A stretch of 64,000 nt of DNA, from the IMG/VR virus record IMGVR_UViG_3300044807_000022, positions 1-64,000 of that record; one strand, given 5' to 3'. Below the pieces are notes generated by a model that was not told the origin of the DNA, ran no database searches, and saw nothing but the letters and a program-made list of their open reading frames with translations. Both the position numbers and the translations under genes were made by a program. This document shows, piece by piece, positions 5,938 through 15,745 of the stretch; positions within the stretch are counted from its first letter, which is position 1, and each line of letters starts with the position of its first letter. Origin of the DNA: a virus.

Positions 5938-6981
5938 ATGCCTGCATCACCGAGAGCCCGGTTGCTCTCAATCCTTTCCGCAGTCGTAGCCGTTCTCGTT
6001 GCGCTCGTCGCGGCGCTCGGAGGCGGTGATGGCACTGCCACGGTGACGGTGCCCTCGAAGAACGGCCCCGCCGTCGTCGTGCCGGTGAAGGACCTGAGCA
6101 TCGTCCAGGACACCGAGGCCGGACACCACGCCGACGACAACCTGCGCAGCGAGAAGATGGTCACCCCGCAGGACCGCAAGGCGAACGCCGAGAAGGCGAG
6201 TCCGCTCACGCCACGGGTCTCCGGGCCGCCGCCGCTCGCGTCACCGCAGCAGGCCGGATGCCTGACCCGCCAGATACCGCACAACTTCTCGAACCGGAAC
6301 GGCACTAGGCCGCTCCTGATCGTCCTGCACTACACGGTCTCGCGCAACGTCGTCGGCTGGGGCGACGTGAACTCGATCTTCGCGTTCTTCAGCCAGGGCT
6401 CGACGCAGGCGTCCTCGAACTACGTCAACGACAACGAGGGCCACTGCATCTACATGGTGCCCGAGACCCAGAAGGCGTGGGCGCAGGCGGGCTTCAACTC
6501 GTACACGGCATGCTCGTTTGAGGTCATCAACACCGGCTCCGAGGCGACCTACGTCGGTTCGTTCGGCGGCGCTGGCGAGAGGGCGCTGGCTCGCGAGGTT
6601 CACGACTGCGCCGTCCGCTGGCACATACCGATCCGGCAGGGCCATACGAGCGGCTGCCAGGTCACCACGTCCGGCATCGTGGACCACCACTCGCTCGGCT
6701 CCTGCGGTGGCGGTCACTTCGACATTGGGCACTTCAGCGTGCCCCGGATCATCCAGGCCGCGCAGCAGGGCTCGGCTCCGGTCGTACTGCCCAAGGCCAA
6801 GGCGCAGGCGCTCTGCAACCTGCTCGTCGGCTACCGGCTCCGGAGGCTGGCTCACGTGCCGCTGGTGAAGGGCGAGAAGTCGGTCTACAAGCGTCGGACC
6901 AAGCGCATCAGGGCCGGGGGCTACTCCTGCTTCAGGCAGGGCAAGAGCCCGGTCGGCCTCATCAAGCGGCGCGGCGCGTAG
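5938..6981 (+). CDS. Endolysin, N-acetylmuramoyl-L-alanine amidase (Amidase_2-like) with N-terminal signal/anchor
   Basis: IVLHYT, ASSNYV, V-PE-xKAW, FEVI and HH...HFD amidase motifs. Confidence 0.88.
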   Translation: MPASPRARLLSILSAVVAVLVALVAALGGGDGTATVTVPSKNGPAVVVPVKDLSIVQDTEAGHHADDNLRSEKMVTPQDRKANAEKASPLTPRVSGPPPLASPQQAGCLTRQIPHNFSNRNGTRPLLIVLHYTVSRNVVGWGDVNSIFAFFSQGSTQASSNYVNDNEGHCIYMVPETQKAWAQAGFNSYTACSFEVINTGSEATYVGSFGGAGERALAREVHDCAVRWHIPIRQGHTSGCQVTTSGIVDHHSLGSCGGGHFDIGHFSVPRIIQAAQQGSAPVVLPKAKAQALCNLLVGYRLRRLAHVPLVKGEKSVYKRRTKRIRAGGYSCFRQGKSPVGLIKRRGA

Positions 6982-6990
6982 CAGCACCAC

Positions 6991-7377
6991 GTGTCCGCCG
7001 TCAAAGCACGGTGGCACGTCGATCTTGACCAACTCGGCGCGGGGGTCCCTGACCTCTGGGCCGAGGAGGTCGAGGCGACGGGCCTGCCGATAGACCTCAC
7101 GACGACCGTCGCACGGCTCACCGACGAGCTACTGAAGACGGGCAAGAAGGAGGGGTACCTGGATAGCTGCGGGATCACCTGCGCCATCAAGGACCGCCCC
7201 GACACGTCGTGCTGGGCCTGCCCGCTGTACGCGGGCGACGTGCCGGATGACCCCCGAGGGTCGCTCTGCATCGTGGGACGTGAACAGGAGCGCATCACTA
7301 CCCGCCTGGTGGTGGCGCGCATGGAGGAAGAACAGGAGCCGCAGGGTGAAACTGAAGGTCCGGACACCGCGCCATAA
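6991..7377 (+). CDS. Cys-rich hypothetical protein
   Basis: C-x3-C...CWAC...C. Confidence 0.6.
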   Translation: MSAVKARWHVDLDQLGAGVPDLWAEEVEATGLPIDLTTTVARLTDELLKTGKKEGYLDSCGITCAIKDRPDTSCWACPLYAGDVPDDPRGSLCIVGREQERITTRLVVARMEEEQEPQGETEGPDTAP

Positions 7378-7573
7378 GCGGCAGCTAGAAGTCCACGGCT
7401 CGCAGGGCATGACGGTCGGTGAGGCTGCCGACTCTGCCGCGCGCCAGTCCTCCTATCACGTCGGCAACCACACGCTCGCCCACGACGGCGAGATACTGCG
7501 ACGGGAGTTACAGCTTTCGGAAGTGCTGAACTACGCCGACTCCAAGCCGCAGTTCGAGCTTGTCCTGCGCTGA
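7346..7573 (+). CDS. Ubiquitin-like (beta-grasp) protein, 75 aa, no C-terminal GG
   Basis: AGGAG RBS 7 nt before GTG; by-eye colinear similarity to ubiquitin, ends FELVLR. Confidence 0.55.
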   Translation: MKLKVRTPRHKRQLEVHGSQGMTVGEAADSAARQSSYHVGNHTLAHDGEILRRELQLSEVLNYADSKPQFELVLR

Positions 7574-8016
7574 TGGGCGAGAAGCCGGACCACCCCGTCC
7601 GCCAGCACCGCGTGCGGCTGACGACGCTGATCGTCCGGCCGCACCCCTCGGACTGGCTGCCGCTGAAGTACGGCAAGGTCACCGAGTTCCGCACGCATCA
7701 GGGGTTCCCTGACCGCATCTACCCGCCGTCGCCCATGGTCCTCTGGCGACGGATCGGCGGTCGGGTCGAGACGATGCTGTGGGTGGTCGAGGAGGCGTGG
7801 CGCGAGCCGCTGGGGGCGATCAGCGACGAGAGCCTGCGGCGGATCGGCTGCGCGAGCCCGAGCGAGTTCCGCGAGCGCTGGGTGGCCGCGCGGGCGACCT
7901 ACTTCGACGCGACGAAGAACGTCAACGTCTTCCGGGGGCGGCCGTACCGGGACACCGACCGCGATTCACTGGCTGACAAGCTCCTGGAGACGCTGTACGG
8001 GGCGTTCCTGCCATGA
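7573..8016 (+). CDS. ASCH/PUA-like domain protein
   Basis: L-x-x-GKxTEFR and LGAISDESLRRIG...EFRERW motifs. Confidence 0.7.
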   Translation: MGEKPDHPVRQHRVRLTTLIVRPHPSDWLPLKYGKVTEFRTHQGFPDRIYPPSPMVLWRRIGGRVETMLWVVEEAWREPLGAISDESLRRIGCASPSEFRERWVAARATYFDATKNVNVFRGRPYRDTDRDSLADKLLETLYGAFLP

Positions 8017-8633
8017 AGCGGTCTGGACCCCCACCCAGGACGAAGGGCCTCCAGGGGACGCGCATGCGCAGCGGCAGGCGCAAGGTCGAGGCGAAGACCG
8101 AGGAGGAGCGCGAGCGGGAGGCGACCGACCGGCTGAACTTCAGGATGGCCGCCGCCAGGCAGGTCGTCTGCGCCGTCTGTCGCCGTGGCGGAAGTTTCGA
8201 CTCCCATCACGTGATCGAGAAGCAGGAGCTTGAGCGGCGGGGGCTCTGGAAGTGGGACCCACGCGGCGCGCTCCGTCTGTGCAAGGGCGCGCTCGGCTGC
8301 CACGACCAGCACACGTACAAGGGCGGCGCTGACCGGGTGCCGCTGGCGAAGCTCACCACCGAGAACATCGACTACGCGTTCGAGGTCCTGGGACCCTTCG
8401 CGTACGACTACCTGAAGCGCCGCTACAGCGGTGAGGACCCGCGCGTCGAGCGCCGCCTGGCTCCTCCGTACGACGGCGAGTACGAGGCCCCGAACGGCGA
8501 CCTCATCCCGTTCTACCGCTGCGACGGCCGCCTGATCTGCTTCGACTGTTGGCAACCGTACTCCCACCACCCGTGCGACGAGCGTGAGGAGTGCCTAACC
8601 GTGCTGTGCAACGGATGGAGGGTGAAGCTGTGA
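8013..8633 (+). CDS. HNH-type endonuclease with an extra C-terminal Cys cluster
   Basis: CAVC...SHHVI...LC...CHDQH. Confidence 0.7.
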   Translation: MKRSGPPPRTKGLQGTRMRSGRRKVEAKTEEEREREATDRLNFRMAAARQVVCAVCRRGGSFDSHHVIEKQELERRGLWKWDPRGALRLCKGALGCHDQHTYKGGADRVPLAKLTTENIDYAFEVLGPFAYDYLKRRYSGEDPRVERRLAPPYDGEYEAPNGDLIPFYRCDGRLICFDCWQPYSHHPCDEREECLTVLCNGWRVKL

Positions 8634-8818
8634 TCCGCCGCTGGTTGAACTGGAGGCTCAAGAGGACCGAGGACAAGCTGTCCGCCACGCTCGTTCTACT
8701 GGACGGCATGGAGCGGCGAGCCGATCCCCACGAATACGCACTGGCCGAGCAGGACGTGTCGCGGCTGCGGTGCCACCGCGCGCGCCTCCTCGACATGCTG
8801 GACGGGGACGACTACTAG
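8630..8818 (+). CDS. Small hypothetical protein
   Basis: GTGA and TAGTG overlaps on both sides. Confidence 0.6.
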   Translation: MIRRWLNWRLKRTEDKLSATLVLLDGMERRADPHEYALAEQDVSRLRCHRARLLDMLDGDDY

Positions 8819-9492
8819 TGGCCTCCCCGCCCGCCAACGCACCGCCGGTCCAGACGTTCGAGTTCGAGCTACCGAGCGGCGGCGTCCTCCACCTTCAGTC
8901 CATGGAGGAGGTCGATCTGATGACGACCTCCTTCCAGCAGCTTGAGAGCGAGTACGCCTTCGAGAAGCTGAACGACAAGATGCTGTTCTCGTCGCTCCTG
9001 ACGCAGCAGTTGATCGCCGTCCGGTCGCAGCAGAAGATCAGCGGCATGGTGCCCGAGTTCGACGGTGCGGGCAAGCCGCTCGGGACCTACAAGTTCGTGA
9101 AGCTCAAGCCCGCCGAGGAGCAGGGCGCGCACAAGGCCCTCATCAACGCGACCGAGCAGATACAGGCCATCGAGAAGCAGCTTGGCATCGACAAGAAGAC
9201 CCGTGACGCGGGCAACACCGAGTCGGTCCAGAGCTACCTCGTCCGAGTGAAGCGCGCGGCGCTCACCATGGGCATCCACATCAACGAGCGCGTGAAGGCG
9301 TACGAGGCGTTCTGCATGGAGCTACGGAAGCTCGTCCGGATGCTCGACAACCTCGACGCGGAAGACCGGCAGCACCACGCGATCACGAAGGACAACGTGC
9401 TCAATTTCGTGCGCAAGGAACTGGAGAAGCTGGAGCAGGTGGACAAGGACTTCGCCCAGCAGAAGGGCCACCTGTGGCGAGGGAAACTCTAA
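8818..9492 (+). CDS. Putative terminase small subunit
   Basis: Helical; IEKQLGIDKKTR pattern; upstream of TerL. Confidence 0.5.
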   Translation: MASPPANAPPVQTFEFELPSGGVLHLQSMEEVDLMTTSFQQLESEYAFEKLNDKMLFSSLLTQQLIAVRSQQKISGMVPEFDGAGKPLGTYKFVKLKPAEEQGAHKALINATEQIQAIEKQLGIDKKTRDAGNTESVQSYLVRVKRAALTMGIHINERVKAYEAFCMELRKLVRMLDNLDAEDRQHHAITKDNVLNFVRKELEKLEQVDKDFAQQKGHLWRGKL

Positions 9493-9511: not shown

Positions 9512-9865
9512 ATGCGTGAGTACGCAACGACGGTGAGGTACGTCTGGAGCCAGGCCGACGTGGAGGGGGCGATGGTCTTCCCAGAGGTTGGCGCGCGCCA
9601 CGCGCAGTTGAAGCTGCGCGCCTACGCGCCGACGAGCGGCATGCAGCCGCGCGTGCGCTGGCTTCCGATCACCGGCCAGTGGGAGGTCGAGTTCACGGTG
9701 TGCGGCATCGACGCGCCGCCGCAGGCCATCGCCATCGAGGCCGCGAGTGCCCTGGTCCTGCGCAACGTCGCGCCGTGGGCCAAGGCCGAGAGCGTCTTCC
9801 GGATCGACACCACGACGCGCCAGGTGACGCCGCCCGGCTACGCGTCTCGGGTTCTGCTCGACTGA
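9512..9865 (+). CDS. Hypothetical protein
   Basis: GGAGG RBS. Confidence 0.65.
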   Translation: MREYATTVRYVWSQADVEGAMVFPEVGARHAQLKLRAYAPTSGMQPRVRWLPITGQWEVEFTVCGIDAPPQAIAIEAASALVLRNVAPWAKAESVFRIDTTTRQVTPPGYASRVLLD

Positions 9866-10395
9866 TGGTCCGCCTGTTCACGGACGGGTCCTCGTCGGGG
9901 GCCAAGGGGGGCGCTGGCGGTTTCGCGGCGCTCCTCATCCACGACCAGTCCGAGCGCGAGTTGATCGTGCAGGGCGGCGAGCCCGACACGACGAACCAGC
10001 GCATGGAGTTGACGGCCGTGATCGAGGGCCTGGTCCACCTGAAGCGCGCGGCCGAGGTCACGATCTACACCGACTCCGCGTACGTGATGAACTGCTTCAT
10101 CCAGGGCTGGCACCGCAAGTGGGCCAAGAACGGCTGGCTGAACAAGGACGAGGAGCCGGTCGCGAACAAGGACCTCTGGCTCGCCGCGCTCGCGGCCATC
10201 GAGCCCCACACCGTGACGTGGGTGAAGCTGAAGGGCCACGTCAAGCTGCCCTGCACGCACGACGGCTGCATGTGCTCGGGTGACGAGACACTGCACGCGC
10301 TCAACGCGCGCGCGGACCAACTCGCGGTGCAGGCAAAGCAAGCGATCAAGGACCACGGCACCGTTGCGGGTCTACTACTGGAGGAGGCGGCATGA
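9865..10395 (+). CDS. rnhA: Ribonuclease HI
   Basis: LFTDGS, TTNQRMELTAVI, YTDSAYV, W-x-x-NGW, VANKDLW, KGH, N-x-RAD-x-LA. Confidence 0.95.
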   Translation: MVRLFTDGSSSGAKGGAGGFAALLIHDQSERELIVQGGEPDTTNQRMELTAVIEGLVHLKRAAEVTIYTDSAYVMNCFIQGWHRKWAKNGWLNKDEEPVANKDLWLAALAAIEPHTVTWVKLKGHVKLPCTHDGCMCSGDETLHALNARADQLAVQAKQAIKDHGTVAGLLLEEAA

Positions 10396-10676
10396 CCGAA
10401 CTGAGCGAACTGATCCACGGCTACGGCATCTTCCTGGGGGCGTACTTCGGCATGGTCGCTGTCCTCTGCATCGTCCTGATCCTGCTGCTGCCGTGGGGGT
10501 GCGACTGCCACTGCGAGTGCGAGTGCGATGACGAGGAGGACGTGGAGCTACCACGCCCCGAGTCAGGTGGGTGGTGCGACTGCGGCGGGTTCACCGCTGA
10601 CGGTCGAGACGGCACGTACAGGTGGGGGTGGCACCGCTCGGAGTGCCCGCGCCTGAAAGAGCTTGGACCGCGCTAG
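10392..10676 (+). CDS. Small TM protein with Cys-rich cytoplasmic part
   Basis: ATGA overlap; TM followed by CDCHCECEC. Confidence 0.6.
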   Translation: MTELSELIHGYGIFLGAYFGMVAVLCIVLILLLPWGCDCHCECECDDEEDVELPRPESGGWCDCGGFTADGRDGTYRWGWHRSECPRLKELGPR

Positions 10677-12469
10677 TGGCCCTCGGTTACATCGAGGGAG
10701 CGCGGTCCCTGCCCGTCGAGTACGAGGGCATCCACTGGACCGAGGAGGACTTCACGCTGATGGCCCTCCTCGGGGACCCGATCTACGTGGCCGAACTGCT
10801 CTGGGAGGACCCCGAGAACCACGAATACGGTGGCTGCTACAAGGTCCGCGACTATCAGTACCCACTGTTCAGGGCCAACGGCTCGTACGAGATATTCGCG
10901 TGCGCGCGCTCGGTCGGCAAGACGGAGAGCATCAAGGCACGGGCGCAGTCGTTCGTCTTCAAGCGCATCGGCTCGAACCTGCTCCTGACCGCACCCGAGT
11001 TGATCCACCTGAAGCCGCTGACCGACGCCATCGAGGACAACTTCAGGGCCACCCGCCTGACCCGCGAACTACTCGACACGCGCGGCCAGAAGACCGGCTT
11101 CACGCACCGGCCGTTCGGCATCGACCTGATCGACGGGACCAAGATCGTCGGCCGCATCCCGCAAAAGCTGGGCACGGGCGTCAAGGGCCAGCACCAGCCG
11201 GACCTCATCATGGACGAGGGCCAGGACTACCCGGAGAAGGGCTACACCGAAATCGCAGAGACGGTGATGAAGGACACGGTGGACAAGGAGGGCAACCCCG
11301 ACTTCCACTACCACATCTACGGCGTGCATTCGGGCAACAAGGGCGGCGGCTTCTACAAGAACACCAGCGGCAACGCGTTCCGGGTGACGAACATCACCGC
11401 GCTCATGCGCCCCGACTGGCCCGGACCGAATGGCGAGCAGAAGAAGTTCGCGAAGGGCCAATACGGCGGCACGGGAAGTCCTGACTACCGTCGCAATATC
11501 TTGGGCGAGGCTGGGGGCGCGTCGAGTCCGTTCTTCGATCTGGCTCGGCTCATGTCCTGCGTCGATCAGGGCAAGGACGGCAACCCGGACGACTCGACGT
11601 ACAACACGCAGGAGTACCAGTTCAACGAGTATCGCGTCGAGGAGGTAGACGAGCAAGGCTTGCCGTTGACGGAGGTCTTCAGCCTGCCGAGCGGCTACAA
11701 GAACGTGTACGCGGGCATGGACGTGGGGCTCAATCAGTCCCCGACCGTCATCACGATCTGGGCGCACCAGAAGGTCGGCCGCGTCATGCGGCTGAAGCTG
11801 ATCCGACGCATCCATCTGGTCCGCTTCCGCTCGCGCCAGGTGCGCGAGGCCGTGTACGCCATCGCGTGGCACTTTGGCTCCGAGCTACGGGCGTTCGGCG
11901 TGGACCAGACGGGCCTCGGCAACGCCATCGTGCAGGAAATGGAGGACGACGACGGCGAGGGCGGCCTGATCCCACCGCCGTTCCTGACCGACGTGCTGCG
12001 CGGCTGGTTCTTCAACCAGAAGATTCCGGTGGGCGTGAGCAAGGAGTTCGTCGTCAACGACAACGGCCGCCTGAAGGACCAGTTCGGTTCATCGGTGAAG
12101 ATCGAGACCGATGTTCTGACGGGAATCACGCGCTACATCACCGAGCAGCCATTCATCGAGGCGGCCACCCGCTACCTGCGCGAGTTCGTGGACAGCGGCC
12201 TCCTCCTGCTGCCGTTCGACACCGACATAACGGACGACATGACGCGCGAGACACCGCAGCGCCTCCAGGCCATCGCTGGCATTCGCCGCAAGCCGAACGC
12301 CTACCACATCTTGGACTCCATGCGCGCCATGGCGATGAGCTTCAAGCAGGGCGACATAGACGCCGCGCTCGCCATCGACCCCGTGAAGCCGGTCATGGAC
12401 CACGCCGTGGACATGGGCGGCGACGTGATGGGCGGGCAGGAACTCGGCGGGGGTCTCGATGACTTCTAG
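10676..12469 (+). CDS. terL: Terminase large subunit
   Basis: ARSVGKT Walker A, LIMDEGQ Walker B, YAGMDVG nuclease motif, GVDQTGLG, HILDSMR. Confidence 0.92.
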   Translation: MALGYIEGARSLPVEYEGIHWTEEDFTLMALLGDPIYVAELLWEDPENHEYGGCYKVRDYQYPLFRANGSYEIFACARSVGKTESIKARAQSFVFKRIGSNLLLTAPELIHLKPLTDAIEDNFRATRLTRELLDTRGQKTGFTHRPFGIDLIDGTKIVGRIPQKLGTGVKGQHQPDLIMDEGQDYPEKGYTEIAETVMKDTVDKEGNPDFHYHIYGVHSGNKGGGFYKNTSGNAFRVTNITALMRPDWPGPNGEQKKFAKGQYGGTGSPDYRRNILGEAGGASSPFFDLARLMSCVDQGKDGNPDDSTYNTQEYQFNEYRVEEVDEQGLPLTEVFSLPSGYKNVYAGMDVGLNQSPTVITIWAHQKVGRVMRLKLIRRIHLVRFRSRQVREAVYAIAWHFGSELRAFGVDQTGLGNAIVQEMEDDDGEGGLIPPPFLTDVLRGWFFNQKIPVGVSKEFVVNDNGRLKDQFGSSVKIETDVLTGITRYITEQPFIEAATRYLREFVDSGLLLLPFDTDITDDMTRETPQRLQAIAGIRRKPNAYHILDSMRAMAMSFKQGDIDAALAIDPVKPVMDHAVDMGGDVMGGQELGGGLDDF

Positions 12470-12992
12470 CCTGCCGCACCCGAGCGAATTCGAGGTCGAG
12501 GAGCCGCCGGGAACGTCTGACGACCGTCCTAGCATCCCTGACGGGATGGACGAGGAGGAGGACACCGGAGCCGAGGAGACGCCGGGCGACGAGGCCGTCA
12601 GGGTCCTCCGCGCCTCGCACATGCTCCGCATTCCGGTCTTCAGGGTCCGCGACACCAGCCCCGCCGAGCGCACGGACGGCTACGAGGAGTACATGATGCT
12701 CGCGGCCTACACGGGTGGCGACCTGGCGCACGCGCGCCACCGCGTCCGCGTCCGCCTCGATGAGGTAGCCGACCTGTGGGACGGCATGGACGGCTGGGAG
12801 TTCTACATGAACGGCAAGCCCCGCACCGACAAGGGCGTCGAGCTTGCGAAGACTGAAGCCGAACCCGACCTGGCCGCCGAGCGCCGCCGGTTGAAGCGGC
12901 TCGAAGGGCGTCTGACCGAGGAAATGGAGCGCATGGAGCAGGAGGCCAAGTTCTGCTCGCGTGCCTACACCCTGCTATCGAGGGGGAGCTAG
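12459..12992 (+). CDS. Hypothetical protein (acidic N-terminus, coiled coil)
   Basis: Overlapping operon position. Confidence 0.7.
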   Translation: MTSSLPHPSEFEVEEPPGTSDDRPSIPDGMDEEEDTGAEETPGDEAVRVLRASHMLRIPVFRVRDTSPAERTDGYEEYMMLAAYTGGDLAHARHRVRVRLDEVADLWDGMDGWEFYMNGKPRTDKGVELAKTEAEPDLAAERRRLKRLEGRLTEEMERMEQEAKFCSRAYTLLSRGS

Positions 12993-13405
12993 TGGACTGC
13001 CCGGACACCTTCCAAGACCTGCTGGCCTTCTGGGGCCGTGAGGAGCCCGTACAGGAGGCGCGGGAGCCCGTGGACCTGGTGGACCCCGAGGACCTGGAGC
13101 CCGACGAGACGGGCTTCACGATGCCTCCCGCCAGCCATGAGGCGATCAAGCGCGCCGCCAAGCGCTGGAACGACTTCGTGGCCGTCACGAACGGTGGCGA
13201 CCAGGAGGAGGTCAGCCAGGCGGGCTACGTCTTCGCCGCTGCGCTCGGGCTCGAAGGCCCCAAGCTCGAACACGCCGTCGAGTGCCTGAAGCTCTGGACG
13301 AACAACGAGGCACCGAGCCAGGGCACGATGGGTCTGCTGTTCGGGCTCCTCATCGCGGACGAAGCGAAACTCGAATGGGAGTTAGAGGGTCCGGAAATCG
13401 GCTAG
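12992..13405 (+). CDS. Hypothetical protein
   Basis: TAGTG overlap. Confidence 0.7.
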   Translation: MDCPDTFQDLLAFWGREEPVQEAREPVDLVDPEDLEPDETGFTMPPASHEAIKRAAKRWNDFVAVTNGGDQEEVSQAGYVFAAALGLEGPKLEHAVECLKLWTNNEAPSQGTMGLLFGLLIADEAKLEWELEGPEIG

Positions 13406-13498: not shown

Positions 13499-15745
13499 GT
13501 GTCTGAGCTAGTAGACCATCGCGGCGATCCCATCAGTTCAGTGGGTGGGTGGCGCGGCGAGGGTCCGCCCAGGCTGGAGAACGGCGACGGCACGCTGATC
13601 GTCAACGAGACGGACCTGCCGGACGGCGCGGTCCAGCATGCGGTCGCCACCTACTTCGAGGAGTCGGCCGCGTTCAACCTCGGCGGCAACTCGAACACGT
13701 TCCAGATGTACGCGAACCAGGGCGGCTCCATGCTGGCCCGGCCCAAGTTCAGTCCCCCCTCCGACGTGTTCGGGGAAATGCGGCTGGCCCGCGACCTGGC
13801 CGAGCGCGACGACGACGTGGGCTCGACCATCGGTGCGCTGGTCGCGCTCGCGTACGGGGAGGGCTTCCAGAACACGCACCCGGACGAGGTAACCGTCGCG
13901 CTCTACGACGAGATTGCCAAGAACATGAAGCTGCCGCAGGTCCAGGCAGAGGCGTACCGGGAACTGCTCATCACCAGCCAGATCATCAGCGTGACCCTGT
14001 TCACGCGCGAGAGCTACAGCTTCATCCCGCAGGGCACCGACCGCTACCGCACCCGCACGGTCACCAGCCCGCTCCTCGGGTTCCTCCCGGCCGAGCACGT
14101 GCGCGTCGTCGGCAACGACCTGTTCGGCGGCGGCGACCTCTACTTCCTCCCGCCCGACGAGAACCTGAAGCGGTGGCTGGTCGAGCGGTTCAACCCGAGC
14201 ACCAGTGCCGGTCGGCTCGCGCAGATGCGCTCCGAGGACCCGGTGGCCTACACGCTGTTCACCGAGGAGCACAAGGTCTCCCCCGTGGACCCGGACGACA
14301 CCATCGCCGGGCTCACGCTCTACCGGCTGAACCCGCGCATGATCGAGCGGTCGTTCTTCCCCAAGGGCGCGTGGAAGTACCCCCGGCCGCTGCTCACCCG
14401 CAACTTCGCTCTCCTCGAAGCCAAGCGGCTCCTGAACATCATGGACTACTCGCTCCTCCAGGGCGGCGCGAACTACATCGTGATCGCCAAGAAGGGCTCG
14501 GACGCGCAGCCCGCGCAGCCGGGCGAGGTCGAGAACCTGCGCGACGTGGTGCGCCGCGCAGGGCGGTCCGGCGTGATGGTGGGCGACCACCGGGTCAGCA
14601 TCGACATTCTGACGCCGGAACTGAAGGAACTGATGAACCCGGACAAGCGCCGCCTGCTCGGACGCAAGCTGTCGCAGGCGATGACGCGCGTGCCCGAGCA
14701 CACCAGCGAGAACGCCGGGACCGAGGGCATGAAGTCCGAGGTAGAAATCCTGACGCGCGTCGTGGCTTCCGACCGCAAGATGGTGAGCATGCACATCGTC
14801 GCGGCGGCCTACGAGCCCACGGCGAAGCGCAACCCGAACACGTTCACGGGCGGCCCGGCGAAGCTCTGGCACCCCAAGATCGTCCTCCAGGGCACGAACT
14901 ACTTCACGGACATGATCCTGAAGCTGCTCGACCGTGGCGCGATCCCGCTGCGCTACGCCGTCGAGTTCGCGGGCTTCGACTTCGAGGCCGCCGTCGAGGA
15001 GAAGAAGCGCCAGAAGGCGCAGGGCCTCGATGAGGTCATGGCCCCCGCGCCCGGCCAGGTGCCGCACTCCTCACCGAACGTCGGCCCGCAGGACAACGGC
15101 CCCGGCCGCACGCCTGGTGGCGACGACCCGGCCAGGCCAAAGCGCAAGATCGCGCAGAACCCCGGCGAGACGATCAAGGCGATCTACGACGAGGAGGCCC
15201 GCAGGGTCACGCGCGTAGGCGAGCGCACGCTGAGCATCCTGGAGGACCACGACGATACGCGCAGCGAGGGCCGCGTGAGCGCCATCGAGCGCCGCGTGGT
15301 CGAGACGCGCCGCCCCGACCGCCAGGGTCCCGTGCGCGTCGTGCCGGTGAGCGACCTGGAGGTCTCCAGCCTCGGGGCCGTCCGTCTGGGCGACCCGGCC
15401 GACACGTCGCTGATTCTCGGCCGCCGCGACGAGGACGACGCGCTCGTCACCGTCGCGCTCAGCTTCCGTGGCCCCGGCTCCATGAACGACGCCGTGAAGG
15501 CGGCCATGGAGTGGGGCTTCGACCCGTTGACCGAGACGGCCGACGAGGAGCACGCCATGCAGCACGTCACGGTGGGCGAGCCCTCGGGCGTCGAGCCCCT
15601 GCTGGCCGTGCTCGCCTCAGCCGTCGCCTCGCAGGCCAGCGTGCAGCTTCCGCCCATCACGATCCACGTCCCAGGCCAGCGCGCTCAGCGCGTGCTGTAC
15701 GACGACGACGGCCGCGTGAAGGGCACCGAGCCGGTGGAGGACTAG
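13499..15745 (+). CDS. Portal protein with C-terminal extension
   Basis: Size and position after TerL; helical core; Pro/Gly linker then extra domain. Confidence 0.8.
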   Translation: MSELVDHRGDPISSVGGWRGEGPPRLENGDGTLIVNETDLPDGAVQHAVATYFEESAAFNLGGNSNTFQMYANQGGSMLARPKFSPPSDVFGEMRLARDLAERDDDVGSTIGALVALAYGEGFQNTHPDEVTVALYDEIAKNMKLPQVQAEAYRELLITSQIISVTLFTRESYSFIPQGTDRYRTRTVTSPLLGFLPAEHVRVVGNDLFGGGDLYFLPPDENLKRWLVERFNPSTSAGRLAQMRSEDPVAYTLFTEEHKVSPVDPDDTIAGLTLYRLNPRMIERSFFPKGAWKYPRPLLTRNFALLEAKRLLNIMDYSLLQGGANYIVIAKKGSDAQPAQPGEVENLRDVVRRAGRSGVMVGDHRVSIDILTPELKELMNPDKRRLLGRKLSQAMTRVPEHTSENAGTEGMKSEVEILTRVVASDRKMVSMHIVAAAYEPTAKRNPNTFTGGPAKLWHPKIVLQGTNYFTDMILKLLDRGAIPLRYAVEFAGFDFEAAVEEKKRQKAQGLDEVMAPAPGQVPHSSPNVGPQDNGPGRTPGGDDPARPKRKIAQNPGETIKAIYDEEARRVTRVGERTLSILEDHDDTRSEGRVSAIERRVVETRRPDRQGPVRVVPVSDLEVSSLGAVRLGDPADTSLILGRRDEDDALVTVALSFRGPGSMNDAVKAAMEWGFDPLTETADEEHAMQHVTVGEPSGVEPLLAVLASAVASQASVQLPPITIHVPGQRAQRVLYDDDGRVKGTEPVED

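Follow-up and report, generated by a model that had tools for sequence, protein, structure and literature searches.

One of the main known forms of phage-encoded ubiquitin-fold protein is TAPI, a ThiS/MoaD-like protein of lambdoid tail gene clusters. In phages lambda and T1, its ubiquitin-related beta-grasp domain ends in a conserved glycine and is followed by a glycine-rich linker and a C-terminal domain, and the gene lies in the tail cluster beside that of the JAB/NlpC peptidase TAPK (Iyer, Burroughs and Aravind 2006, PMC1779556). The present study focused on a protein of 75 amino acids (aa), specified at 7346-7573 of a window of 64,000 nucleotides (nt) that represents the first 64 kb of the IMG/VR record IMGVR_UViG_3300044807_000022. 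It is a ubiquitin-like (Ubl) protein that is confidently predicted to adopt the ubiquitin-type beta-grasp fold, and it stops where the tail of ubiquitin would start. The complete record is of 85,063 bp with direct terminal repeats, is rated 100% complete, has a GC content of around 68% and originates from soil metagenomes, so that the initial annotation of this DNA was right to call the gene phage-encoded. Like the Ubl domain of TAPI the protein is a phage-encoded, ubiquitin-related beta-grasp, but it consists of a single domain, its gene lies between those for an amidase endolysin and the HNH and terminase-like proteins, and the genome carries no JAB gene.

Other described systems are cellular. 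The Ubl proteins of the bacterial Bil and Bub systems have a conserved C-terminal glycine and are encoded together with genes for E1, E2 and JAB proteins (bioRxiv 10.1101/2023.09.04.556158; PMC10557695; PMC11601603). They share the beta-grasp fold with the phage protein (8tyz_B is matched with a Z score of 8.5), but the latter has neither the glycine tail nor such enzymes in its genome, and no PADLOC model matches it. The closest prokaryotic precedent for a ubiquitin-type protein lacking the terminal glycines is BfUbb of Bacteroides fragilis, a secreted inter-strain toxin with 63% identity to human ubiquitin, a signal peptide and a C-terminal cysteine (PMC3352274, PMC5705921, PMC11467351). Like the phage protein it is associated with prokaryotes, found in some strains only, and put to a use other than conjugation; the phage protein differs in having no signal peptide and only remote sequence similarity to ubiquitin, and cysteine is absent from seven of the ten members of its family.

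Small beta-grasp proteins that lack the two glycines are also represented by YukD/EsaB and by TmoB, a structural neighbour of the phage protein (Z 9.3; template-modelling (TM) score 0.81). These are bacterial, non-conjugated beta-grasp subunits thought to stabilise or regulate complexes. Neither family is matched by the phage protein in Pfam at an expect value (E) of 10 or less, and neither a type VII secretion nor a monooxygenase context is present in the phage. No YukD protein was among the structural matches listed, and the Pfam survey of the genome revealed no secretion-system families, which does not by itself exclude kinship at the level of the fold.

As a working analogue, Hub1, a eukaryotic, non-conjugated Ubl protein that acts non-covalently, comes closest. 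Hub1 (3plv, 4pyu) and the phage protein are both stand-alone beta-grasp proteins of around 73-75 residues that end right past the last strand, without tail or di-glycine, and the model of the phage protein aligns over residues 1-75 with Hub1 residues 2-73 (4pyu_A, Z 8.4; 3plv_A, Foldseek E 2.8e-4, TM 0.72). They differ in that sequence identity is around 14% and that the phage protein is basic and phage-borne. The partner of Hub1, the HIND element of the spliceosomal protein Snu66, has to our knowledge no bacterial counterpart. In structure, the nearest proteins are ubiquitin and ISG15. With these and with NEDD8 the phage protein shares the fold, the order of its elements and weak, in-register matches to the Pfam ubiquitin profile PF00240, and its C-terminus, E-L-V-L-R, resembles H-L-V-L-R of ubiquitin (68-72). 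It differs from them in scoring below the Pfam gathering threshold, in having no L-R-G-G, and in the absence of genes for E1, E2 or deubiquitinating enzymes. What is new, then, is a medium-sized tailed phage with a lone, tail-less protein that is predicted to be nearest in structure to ubiquitin, ISG15 and Hub1, and with no enzyme to attach it.

Predicted fold and sequence family

A model calculated by AlphaFold2 (AF2) from a 9-sequence alignment of the family had a predicted local distance difference test score (pLDDT) of 86.1 and a predicted TM score (pTM) of 0.76, and superseded a poor single-sequence model (pLDDT 46). Its elements, which are strands at residues 2-6 and 13-17, a helix at 24-34, strands at 43-46 and (short) 49-50, a helix at 57-63 and a final strand at 70-73, occur in the order seen in ubiquitin and give the beta-beta-alpha-beta-beta-(short helix)-beta arrangement of a beta-grasp. 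A Foldseek search of the PDB returned 104 matches at E<=1e-3, those shown being all ubiquitin or Ubl proteins (TM 0.66-0.79) and led by ISG15 (25% identity), ubiquitin (16-18% identity, TM up to 0.79), Hub1, Rub1/NEDD8, the BAG6 UBL domain and the ubiquitin of Caldiarchaeum. Comparison with 48,161 representative chains using VIA-align gave Z scores of 8.2-10.4, across residues 1-75, to domains of the ubiquitin superfold, including FERM-F1, RA, Rad60-SLD2, TmoB, Get5-UBL, ISG15, parkin-Ubl, ubiquitin, 8tyz_B and Hub1. An independent model of the exact sequence in the ESM Atlas (pTM 0.67) has archaeal and eukaryotic Ubl proteins and TmoB as its neighbours (TM 0.76-0.82). When predicted viral structures were searched, the named proteins among the best 50 matches were ubiquitins or Ubl domains from eukaryotic viruses, and no named phage protein was found among these 50.

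At the sequence level the likeness to ubiquitin is weak. The Pfam profile PF00240 has a cut-off of 25.4 bits, which the phage protein missed with 13.9 bits (E 0.047), and the match was in register, residues 3-66 aligning with profile positions 1-62. Of nine family members, four matched this profile (best E 0.02), while the Rad60-SLD and OTU1-UBXL profiles were each matched by single members. A profile search of PDB sequences gave only a non-significant, in-register match to a redesigned ubiquitin. The colinearity with ubiquitin that had been noticed by eye in the initial annotation was therefore right in substance, the decisive evidence being structural: the fold predicted by AF2, and found again by Foldseek, by VIA-align and in the ESM Atlas, is a beta-grasp, and the outcome that would have overturned the proposal, a different fold, was not seen.

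Searches of very large protein collections (billions of proteins) recovered 10 distinct homologues, all metagenomic, of 72-77 aa and with 33-79% identity to the phage protein. All begin with M-[KQ]-x-K-[VIM]-[RK]-T-P-R and terminate in E-L-V-[LV] plus R, G or GA. They are basic, with isoelectric points (pI) of 9.1-9.8 and a basic N-terminus (K-x-K-x-R-T-P-R-x-K/R-K/R). Pattern scans of IMG/VR, of JGI metagenome contigs and of GTDB genomes (around 185,000 species genomes) revealed no further relatives, and blastn and tblastn searches of cultured phages gave no meaningful match. An exhaustive HMMER search with no length limit found no fused forms; five long matches were considered as possible fusions and proved to be repeat or low-complexity proteins. 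The protein is best described as founding a small family of sequences, hitherto without a name, in the ubiquitin superfold.

The gene and its missing tail

The ORF (open reading frame) at 7346-7573 is a real gene, as shown by its ribosome-binding site and GTG start, its coding GC pattern, and homologues of equal length with conserved termini. The start, the ribosome-binding site and the 75-aa translation were as first described. The GC fractions at codon positions 1/2/3 (0.72/0.39/0.80) are those usual for coding sequence in this genome, and the 21 codons ahead of ATG 7409 show the same pattern on their own (0.76/0.38/0.76). Third-position GC (GC3) is lower than in the next two genes (0.80 against 0.95 and 0.90), a weak hint of separate origin. 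Soil contigs from other studies, around 85-90% identical, span the upstream gene, the Ubl gene and the downstream gene (7180-7791 and 7373-7838), and within the Ubl ORF they carry paired indels that keep the frame. Scans for sigma-70 promoters and terminators gave no signal over the level of shuffled sequence.

A shorter product, starting at ATG 7409, had been named beforehand as an outcome that would count against the proposal. It can be rejected because homologues keep the N-terminal 21 residues, because Met22 is replaced in most of them (by Leu, Ser, Thr or others), and because the coding GC pattern covers the first 21 codons. The replacement of Met22 means that the long form is the conserved product.

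In the structural alignment, model residues 1-75 correspond to ubiquitin residues 1-72, so that residue 75 is the equivalent of ubiquitin residue 72 and the protein stops where the ubiquitin tail, L73-R74-G75-G76, would start; the initial annotation had placed the end at the same point. Eight of the ten members end in ELVLR or ELVVR, one in ELVLG and one in ELVLGA, in each case directly past the last strand. A terminal glycine is not conserved in the family, nor do its members have a flexible, glycine-ended tail. Judged from the model and these C-termini, the di-glycine tail is lacking across the whole family. Nor does the phage appear equipped for conjugation. No ThiF/E1, E2 or JAB protein was detected by Pfam among the 101 ORFs of the complete genome, and six-frame searches of it with PF00899, PF14464, PF00179 and PF14461 gave nothing above cut-off, while the ThiF and Prok-JAB models gave signal in control genomes. 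The defence models of PADLOC v2.0.0, a 2023 library that may lack newer Ubl models, gave no match to nine family members at E<=10. The phage Ubl protein is thus without the hallmarks of a conjugatable modifier: it has no tail, and the phage encodes no E1, E2 or JAB protein.

A related phage and the likely role

A distant homologue of the 147-aa protein encoded directly downstream led to a related, complete soil phage with direct terminal repeats, IMGVR_UViG_3300046454_000825 (78,875 bp, GC around 62%). Its terminase-like protein is 55% identical to that of the present phage. Both genomes carry, in the same order, genes for a cysteine-rich protein, a protein of the 147-aa type, an HNH endonuclease, a 217/240-aa protein, variable genes and the terminase-like protein, with protein identities of 34-55% in a shared block that occupies 6991-9492 and 10622-12469 of the window and 9610-13201 of the related phage. 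In the latter, the cysteine-rich gene ends without the acidic tail seen here and the gene of the 147-aa type follows directly. The profile of the Ubl family detected the protein in the present genome (E 2e-38) and had no match in the related one. A second related contig is a 45%-complete fragment that begins inside the gene of the 240-aa type and does not cover the Ubl slot. Since the flanking genes are kept in order without it, the Ubl gene appears to be an accessory (moron-like), optional insertion into a conserved block, carried by one lineage of high-GC, uncultivated phages from soil. It also follows that the neighbouring genes can function without the Ubl protein, which would then not be their obligate partner.

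The reading favoured here, to which a probability of around 55% is given, is that the protein is a stand-alone, non-conjugated ubiquitin-fold module specified by an optional gene, that it binds a partner protein non-covalently, and that this partner is more likely to belong to the host than to the core of the phage. Ending at the position of ubiquitin Arg72 and having no tail, it would not be a conjugatable modifier, and would act instead as Hub1 or UBL, RA and FERM-F1 domains do, probably through the exposed face of the beta-sheet. The invariant residues K4, P8-R9, H42-T43, E71 and V73 appear to lie on the face that ubiquitin uses for most of its non-covalent contacts. Going by sequence register, invariant polar or charged residues would replace the hydrophobic L8/I44/H68/V70 patch of ubiquitin, which marks a further difference from that protein. 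A host protein could be targeted for takeover or for counter-defence, and is likelier as the partner than a core phage component because the neighbouring genes do without the Ubl gene in the related phage. If so, this would be a compact case of a bacterial virus that employs the ubiquitin fold for binding and nothing else. The adaptor domain suggested as one of two possible roles in the initial annotation is compatible with the data. At 75 residues the protein should be easy to express, solve and test.

Several points weigh against this reading. The AF2 model depends on an alignment of nine sequences, and the argument about the surface is drawn from register and strand alternation, not from model coordinates. 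The partner is hypothetical, and its binding is proposed by analogy. One family member ends in glycine and another in Gly-Ala, so that conjugation by host enzymes is formally possible in some lineages. The Ubl gene lies in a tight array with its neighbours and accompanies the 147-aa gene on three short related contigs, which would also suit a partner within the phage, and a basic family amid genes for nucleic-acid enzymes would also fit nucleic-acid binding.

The partner within the phage can be put more precisely, the Ubl protein being an accessory subunit that would attach to the cysteine-rich protein, the 147-aa protein or the HNH/terminase machinery so as to stabilise or regulate the complex, in the manner of TmoB or YukD. 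TmoB is indeed a structural neighbour (3dhg_C, Z 9.3), the start and stop of the Ubl gene overlap both neighbouring genes, and related contigs span all three. Homologues of the 147-aa protein occur on contigs of 2830, 1299 and 1241 bp, and three Ubl homologues lie on contigs of identical sizes, so that the two genes are probably linked in the closest relatives. No 147-aa homologue was recovered from the contigs of four other members, which, from a word-based search, is weak evidence, and co-folding of the Ubl and 147-aa proteins gave a score of 0.00, which counts neither for nor against binding. As the related phage keeps all of these neighbours in order without the Ubl gene, such a role is considered possible but unlikely. 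Binding of RNA or DNA, as by TGS-type domains, and in cooperation with the HNH and RNase H proteins encoded nearby, would be in keeping with the high pI and basic N-terminus of all members. The best structural matches, however, are protein-interaction modules (Ubl, RA, FERM), no TGS-type domain is among the matches listed, no family of nucleic-acid-binding proteins was matched in Pfam, and the related phage does without the gene; the idea is held to be improbable.

The other role first suggested, that of an anti-defence decoy, assumes a tail-less mimic of the Ubl protein of a host conjugation defence (Bil, Bub, or Cap2 of the type II cyclic-oligonucleotide-based antiphage signalling system, CBASS) that occupies E1/E2 or JAB enzymes and cannot be transferred. 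A ubiquitin-type fold without a tail is what it calls for, and an accessory gene that is absent from a related phage is typical of counter-defence. There are also precedents: BfUbb, a bacterial ubiquitin homologue without the two glycines, binds E1 and inhibits ubiquitination in vitro (PMC3352274), and Bil systems conjugate their Ubl protein to phage tail fibres (bioRxiv 10.1101/2023.09.04.556158). Predicted recognition by E1, however, involves insertion of the C-terminus of the Ubl protein into the adenylation site (bioRxiv 10.1101/2023.09.04.556158), and the phage protein has no such tail. The bacterial Ubl protein of an E1-E2-Ubl complex, 8tyz_B, is undistinguished among the structural matches (10% identity, rank 27) and no closer than dozens of other Ubl proteins, the PADLOC models matched none of the nine members, and literature searches found no phage Ubl decoy. 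A decoy for host Ubl defence thus receives no specific support from these data and is distinctly unlikely. The proposal of counter-defence by ubiquitin mimicry, in which the tail-less protein would jam the E1, the E2 or the deconjugating enzyme of host Ubl immunity, is something of a long shot. It would be of some consequence if true, as a 'dead ubiquitin' from a virus that inhibits prokaryotic Ubl immunity, the first of its kind; more generally, a partner among the enzymes of Ubl-conjugation defence would define a new class of anti-defence proteins. As for a non-functional ORF, genomes of high GC are rich in long spurious frames, but homologues as distant as 33% identity keep the length and both termini, and the coding pattern includes the first 21 codons; a chance ORF is scarcely credible, and the same is true of a product made only from ATG 7409, since the confident fold requires strand 1 and Met22 is not conserved.

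Neighbouring genes and the rest of the genome

The features around the Ubl gene are collected in Table 1. Beyond the 240-aa gene lie an RNase H gene and that for a 615-aa terminase-like protein, so that the block with the Ubl slot is bounded by the lysis genes on one side and the terminase-like gene on the other. No cultured phage is similar to this genome at the DNA level, and its conserved proteins show no more than remote similarity to cultured-phage proteins.

Table 1. Features around the Ubl gene (positions in the window) and protein-level likeness of their counterparts in the related phage
Feature	Position	Strand	Details	Counterpart in related phage
Amidase endolysin	5938-6981		Upstream of the cysteine-rich and Ubl genes	
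Cysteine-rich protein, 128 aa	6991-7377	+	Directly upstream of the Ubl gene; acidic C-terminal tail overlaps Ubl start by 32 nt	34% identity, E 2e-14
Shine-Dalgarno-like AGGAG	7334-7338	+	Spacer to GTG of 7 nt; read from sequence	
Tail-less Ubl protein, 75 aa	7346-7573	+	GTG start, TGA stop; translation	No profile match
147-aa protein	7573-8016	+	Directly downstream of the Ubl gene; start overlaps Ubl stop (TGATG, 7571-7575)	45% identity
HNH endonuclease	8013-8633	+	ATGA overlap (8013-8016) with stop of 147-aa gene; PHROG 589, E 1.1e-5	45% identity, E 3e-23
Conserved 240-aa protein	8770-9492	+	Same block, upstream of the terminase-like gene	217-aa protein, 40% identity over 212 residues, E 2e-58

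The cysteine-rich protein matched no known family in profile searches, and its feature matches in the ESM Atlas (up to 0.80, including Ral) were at chance level. Its family, which likewise matches no known one, keeps the motif C-x-I-K-D...S-C-x-A-C-P-L...L-C. The 147-aa protein has no match in Pfam, PHROG, NCBIfam or the PDB, and the same was found when five members of its family were compared with Pfam at E<=10. It had been called an ASCH protein, to which the Ubl gene was said to be translationally coupled along with an HNH gene. The overlapping stops and starts and the HNH assignment both stand, but the ASCH assignment is unsupported, as no profile matched and the resemblance is limited to the motif G-x-x-T-E-F-R.

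The HNH protein is longer here (206 aa) than in the related phage (115 aa), and its additional C-terminal part is rich in cysteine and histidine. Contigs of two other soil runs skip 8460-8630, inside the HNH gene, and have only 7-20 other letters in its place, so that the extension appears to be an indel-variable segment. In the contigs of two soil runs, 7194-7224 is joined to 9168-9180, skipping around 1950-1975 nt, with sides of 26-44 nt and 80% likeness. These joints may be due to chance, or reflect a short motif that is conserved or repeated. A repeat search of 6900-9400 gave short, chance-like matches only, and a bin of high depth was seen at 9167-9287.

In the Pfam survey of the whole genome, families such as RNase H, amidase endolysin, DnaB, RuvB, integrase, glycosyl- and methyltransferases and MoxR/vWA were represented, among others. 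Within 1-27000 of the window, 34 ORFs yielded matches to just three families at E<=1e-3, namely RNase H, Amidase_2 and, marginally, UPF0239; this region consists mostly of unnamed proteins. One of the proteins in this part, of 748 aa (13499-15745), has as its sole match in a collection of cultured phages a 30%-identical stretch in a PhoH-annotated protein of a mangrove-soil Caudovirales record. Between 27401 and 59380, matches were to LAGLIDADG_3, Hom_end, DnaB, PD-(D/E)XK, VRR-NUC, integrase, several glycosyl- and methyltransferases and sigma-70 region 4. Those to LAGLIDADG_3 and Hom_end may indicate a homing endonuclease or an intein. No tRNA genes were found in the window. In the part of the genome from 62001 to 82000, RuvB, DUF6744 and DUF6117 were matched, and minus-strand genes at around 64.3-70.1 kb probably specify a bpMoxR AAA+ ATPase (E 4e-40) as well as proteins with vWA domains, families that belong to the MoxR-vWA ternary conflict systems.

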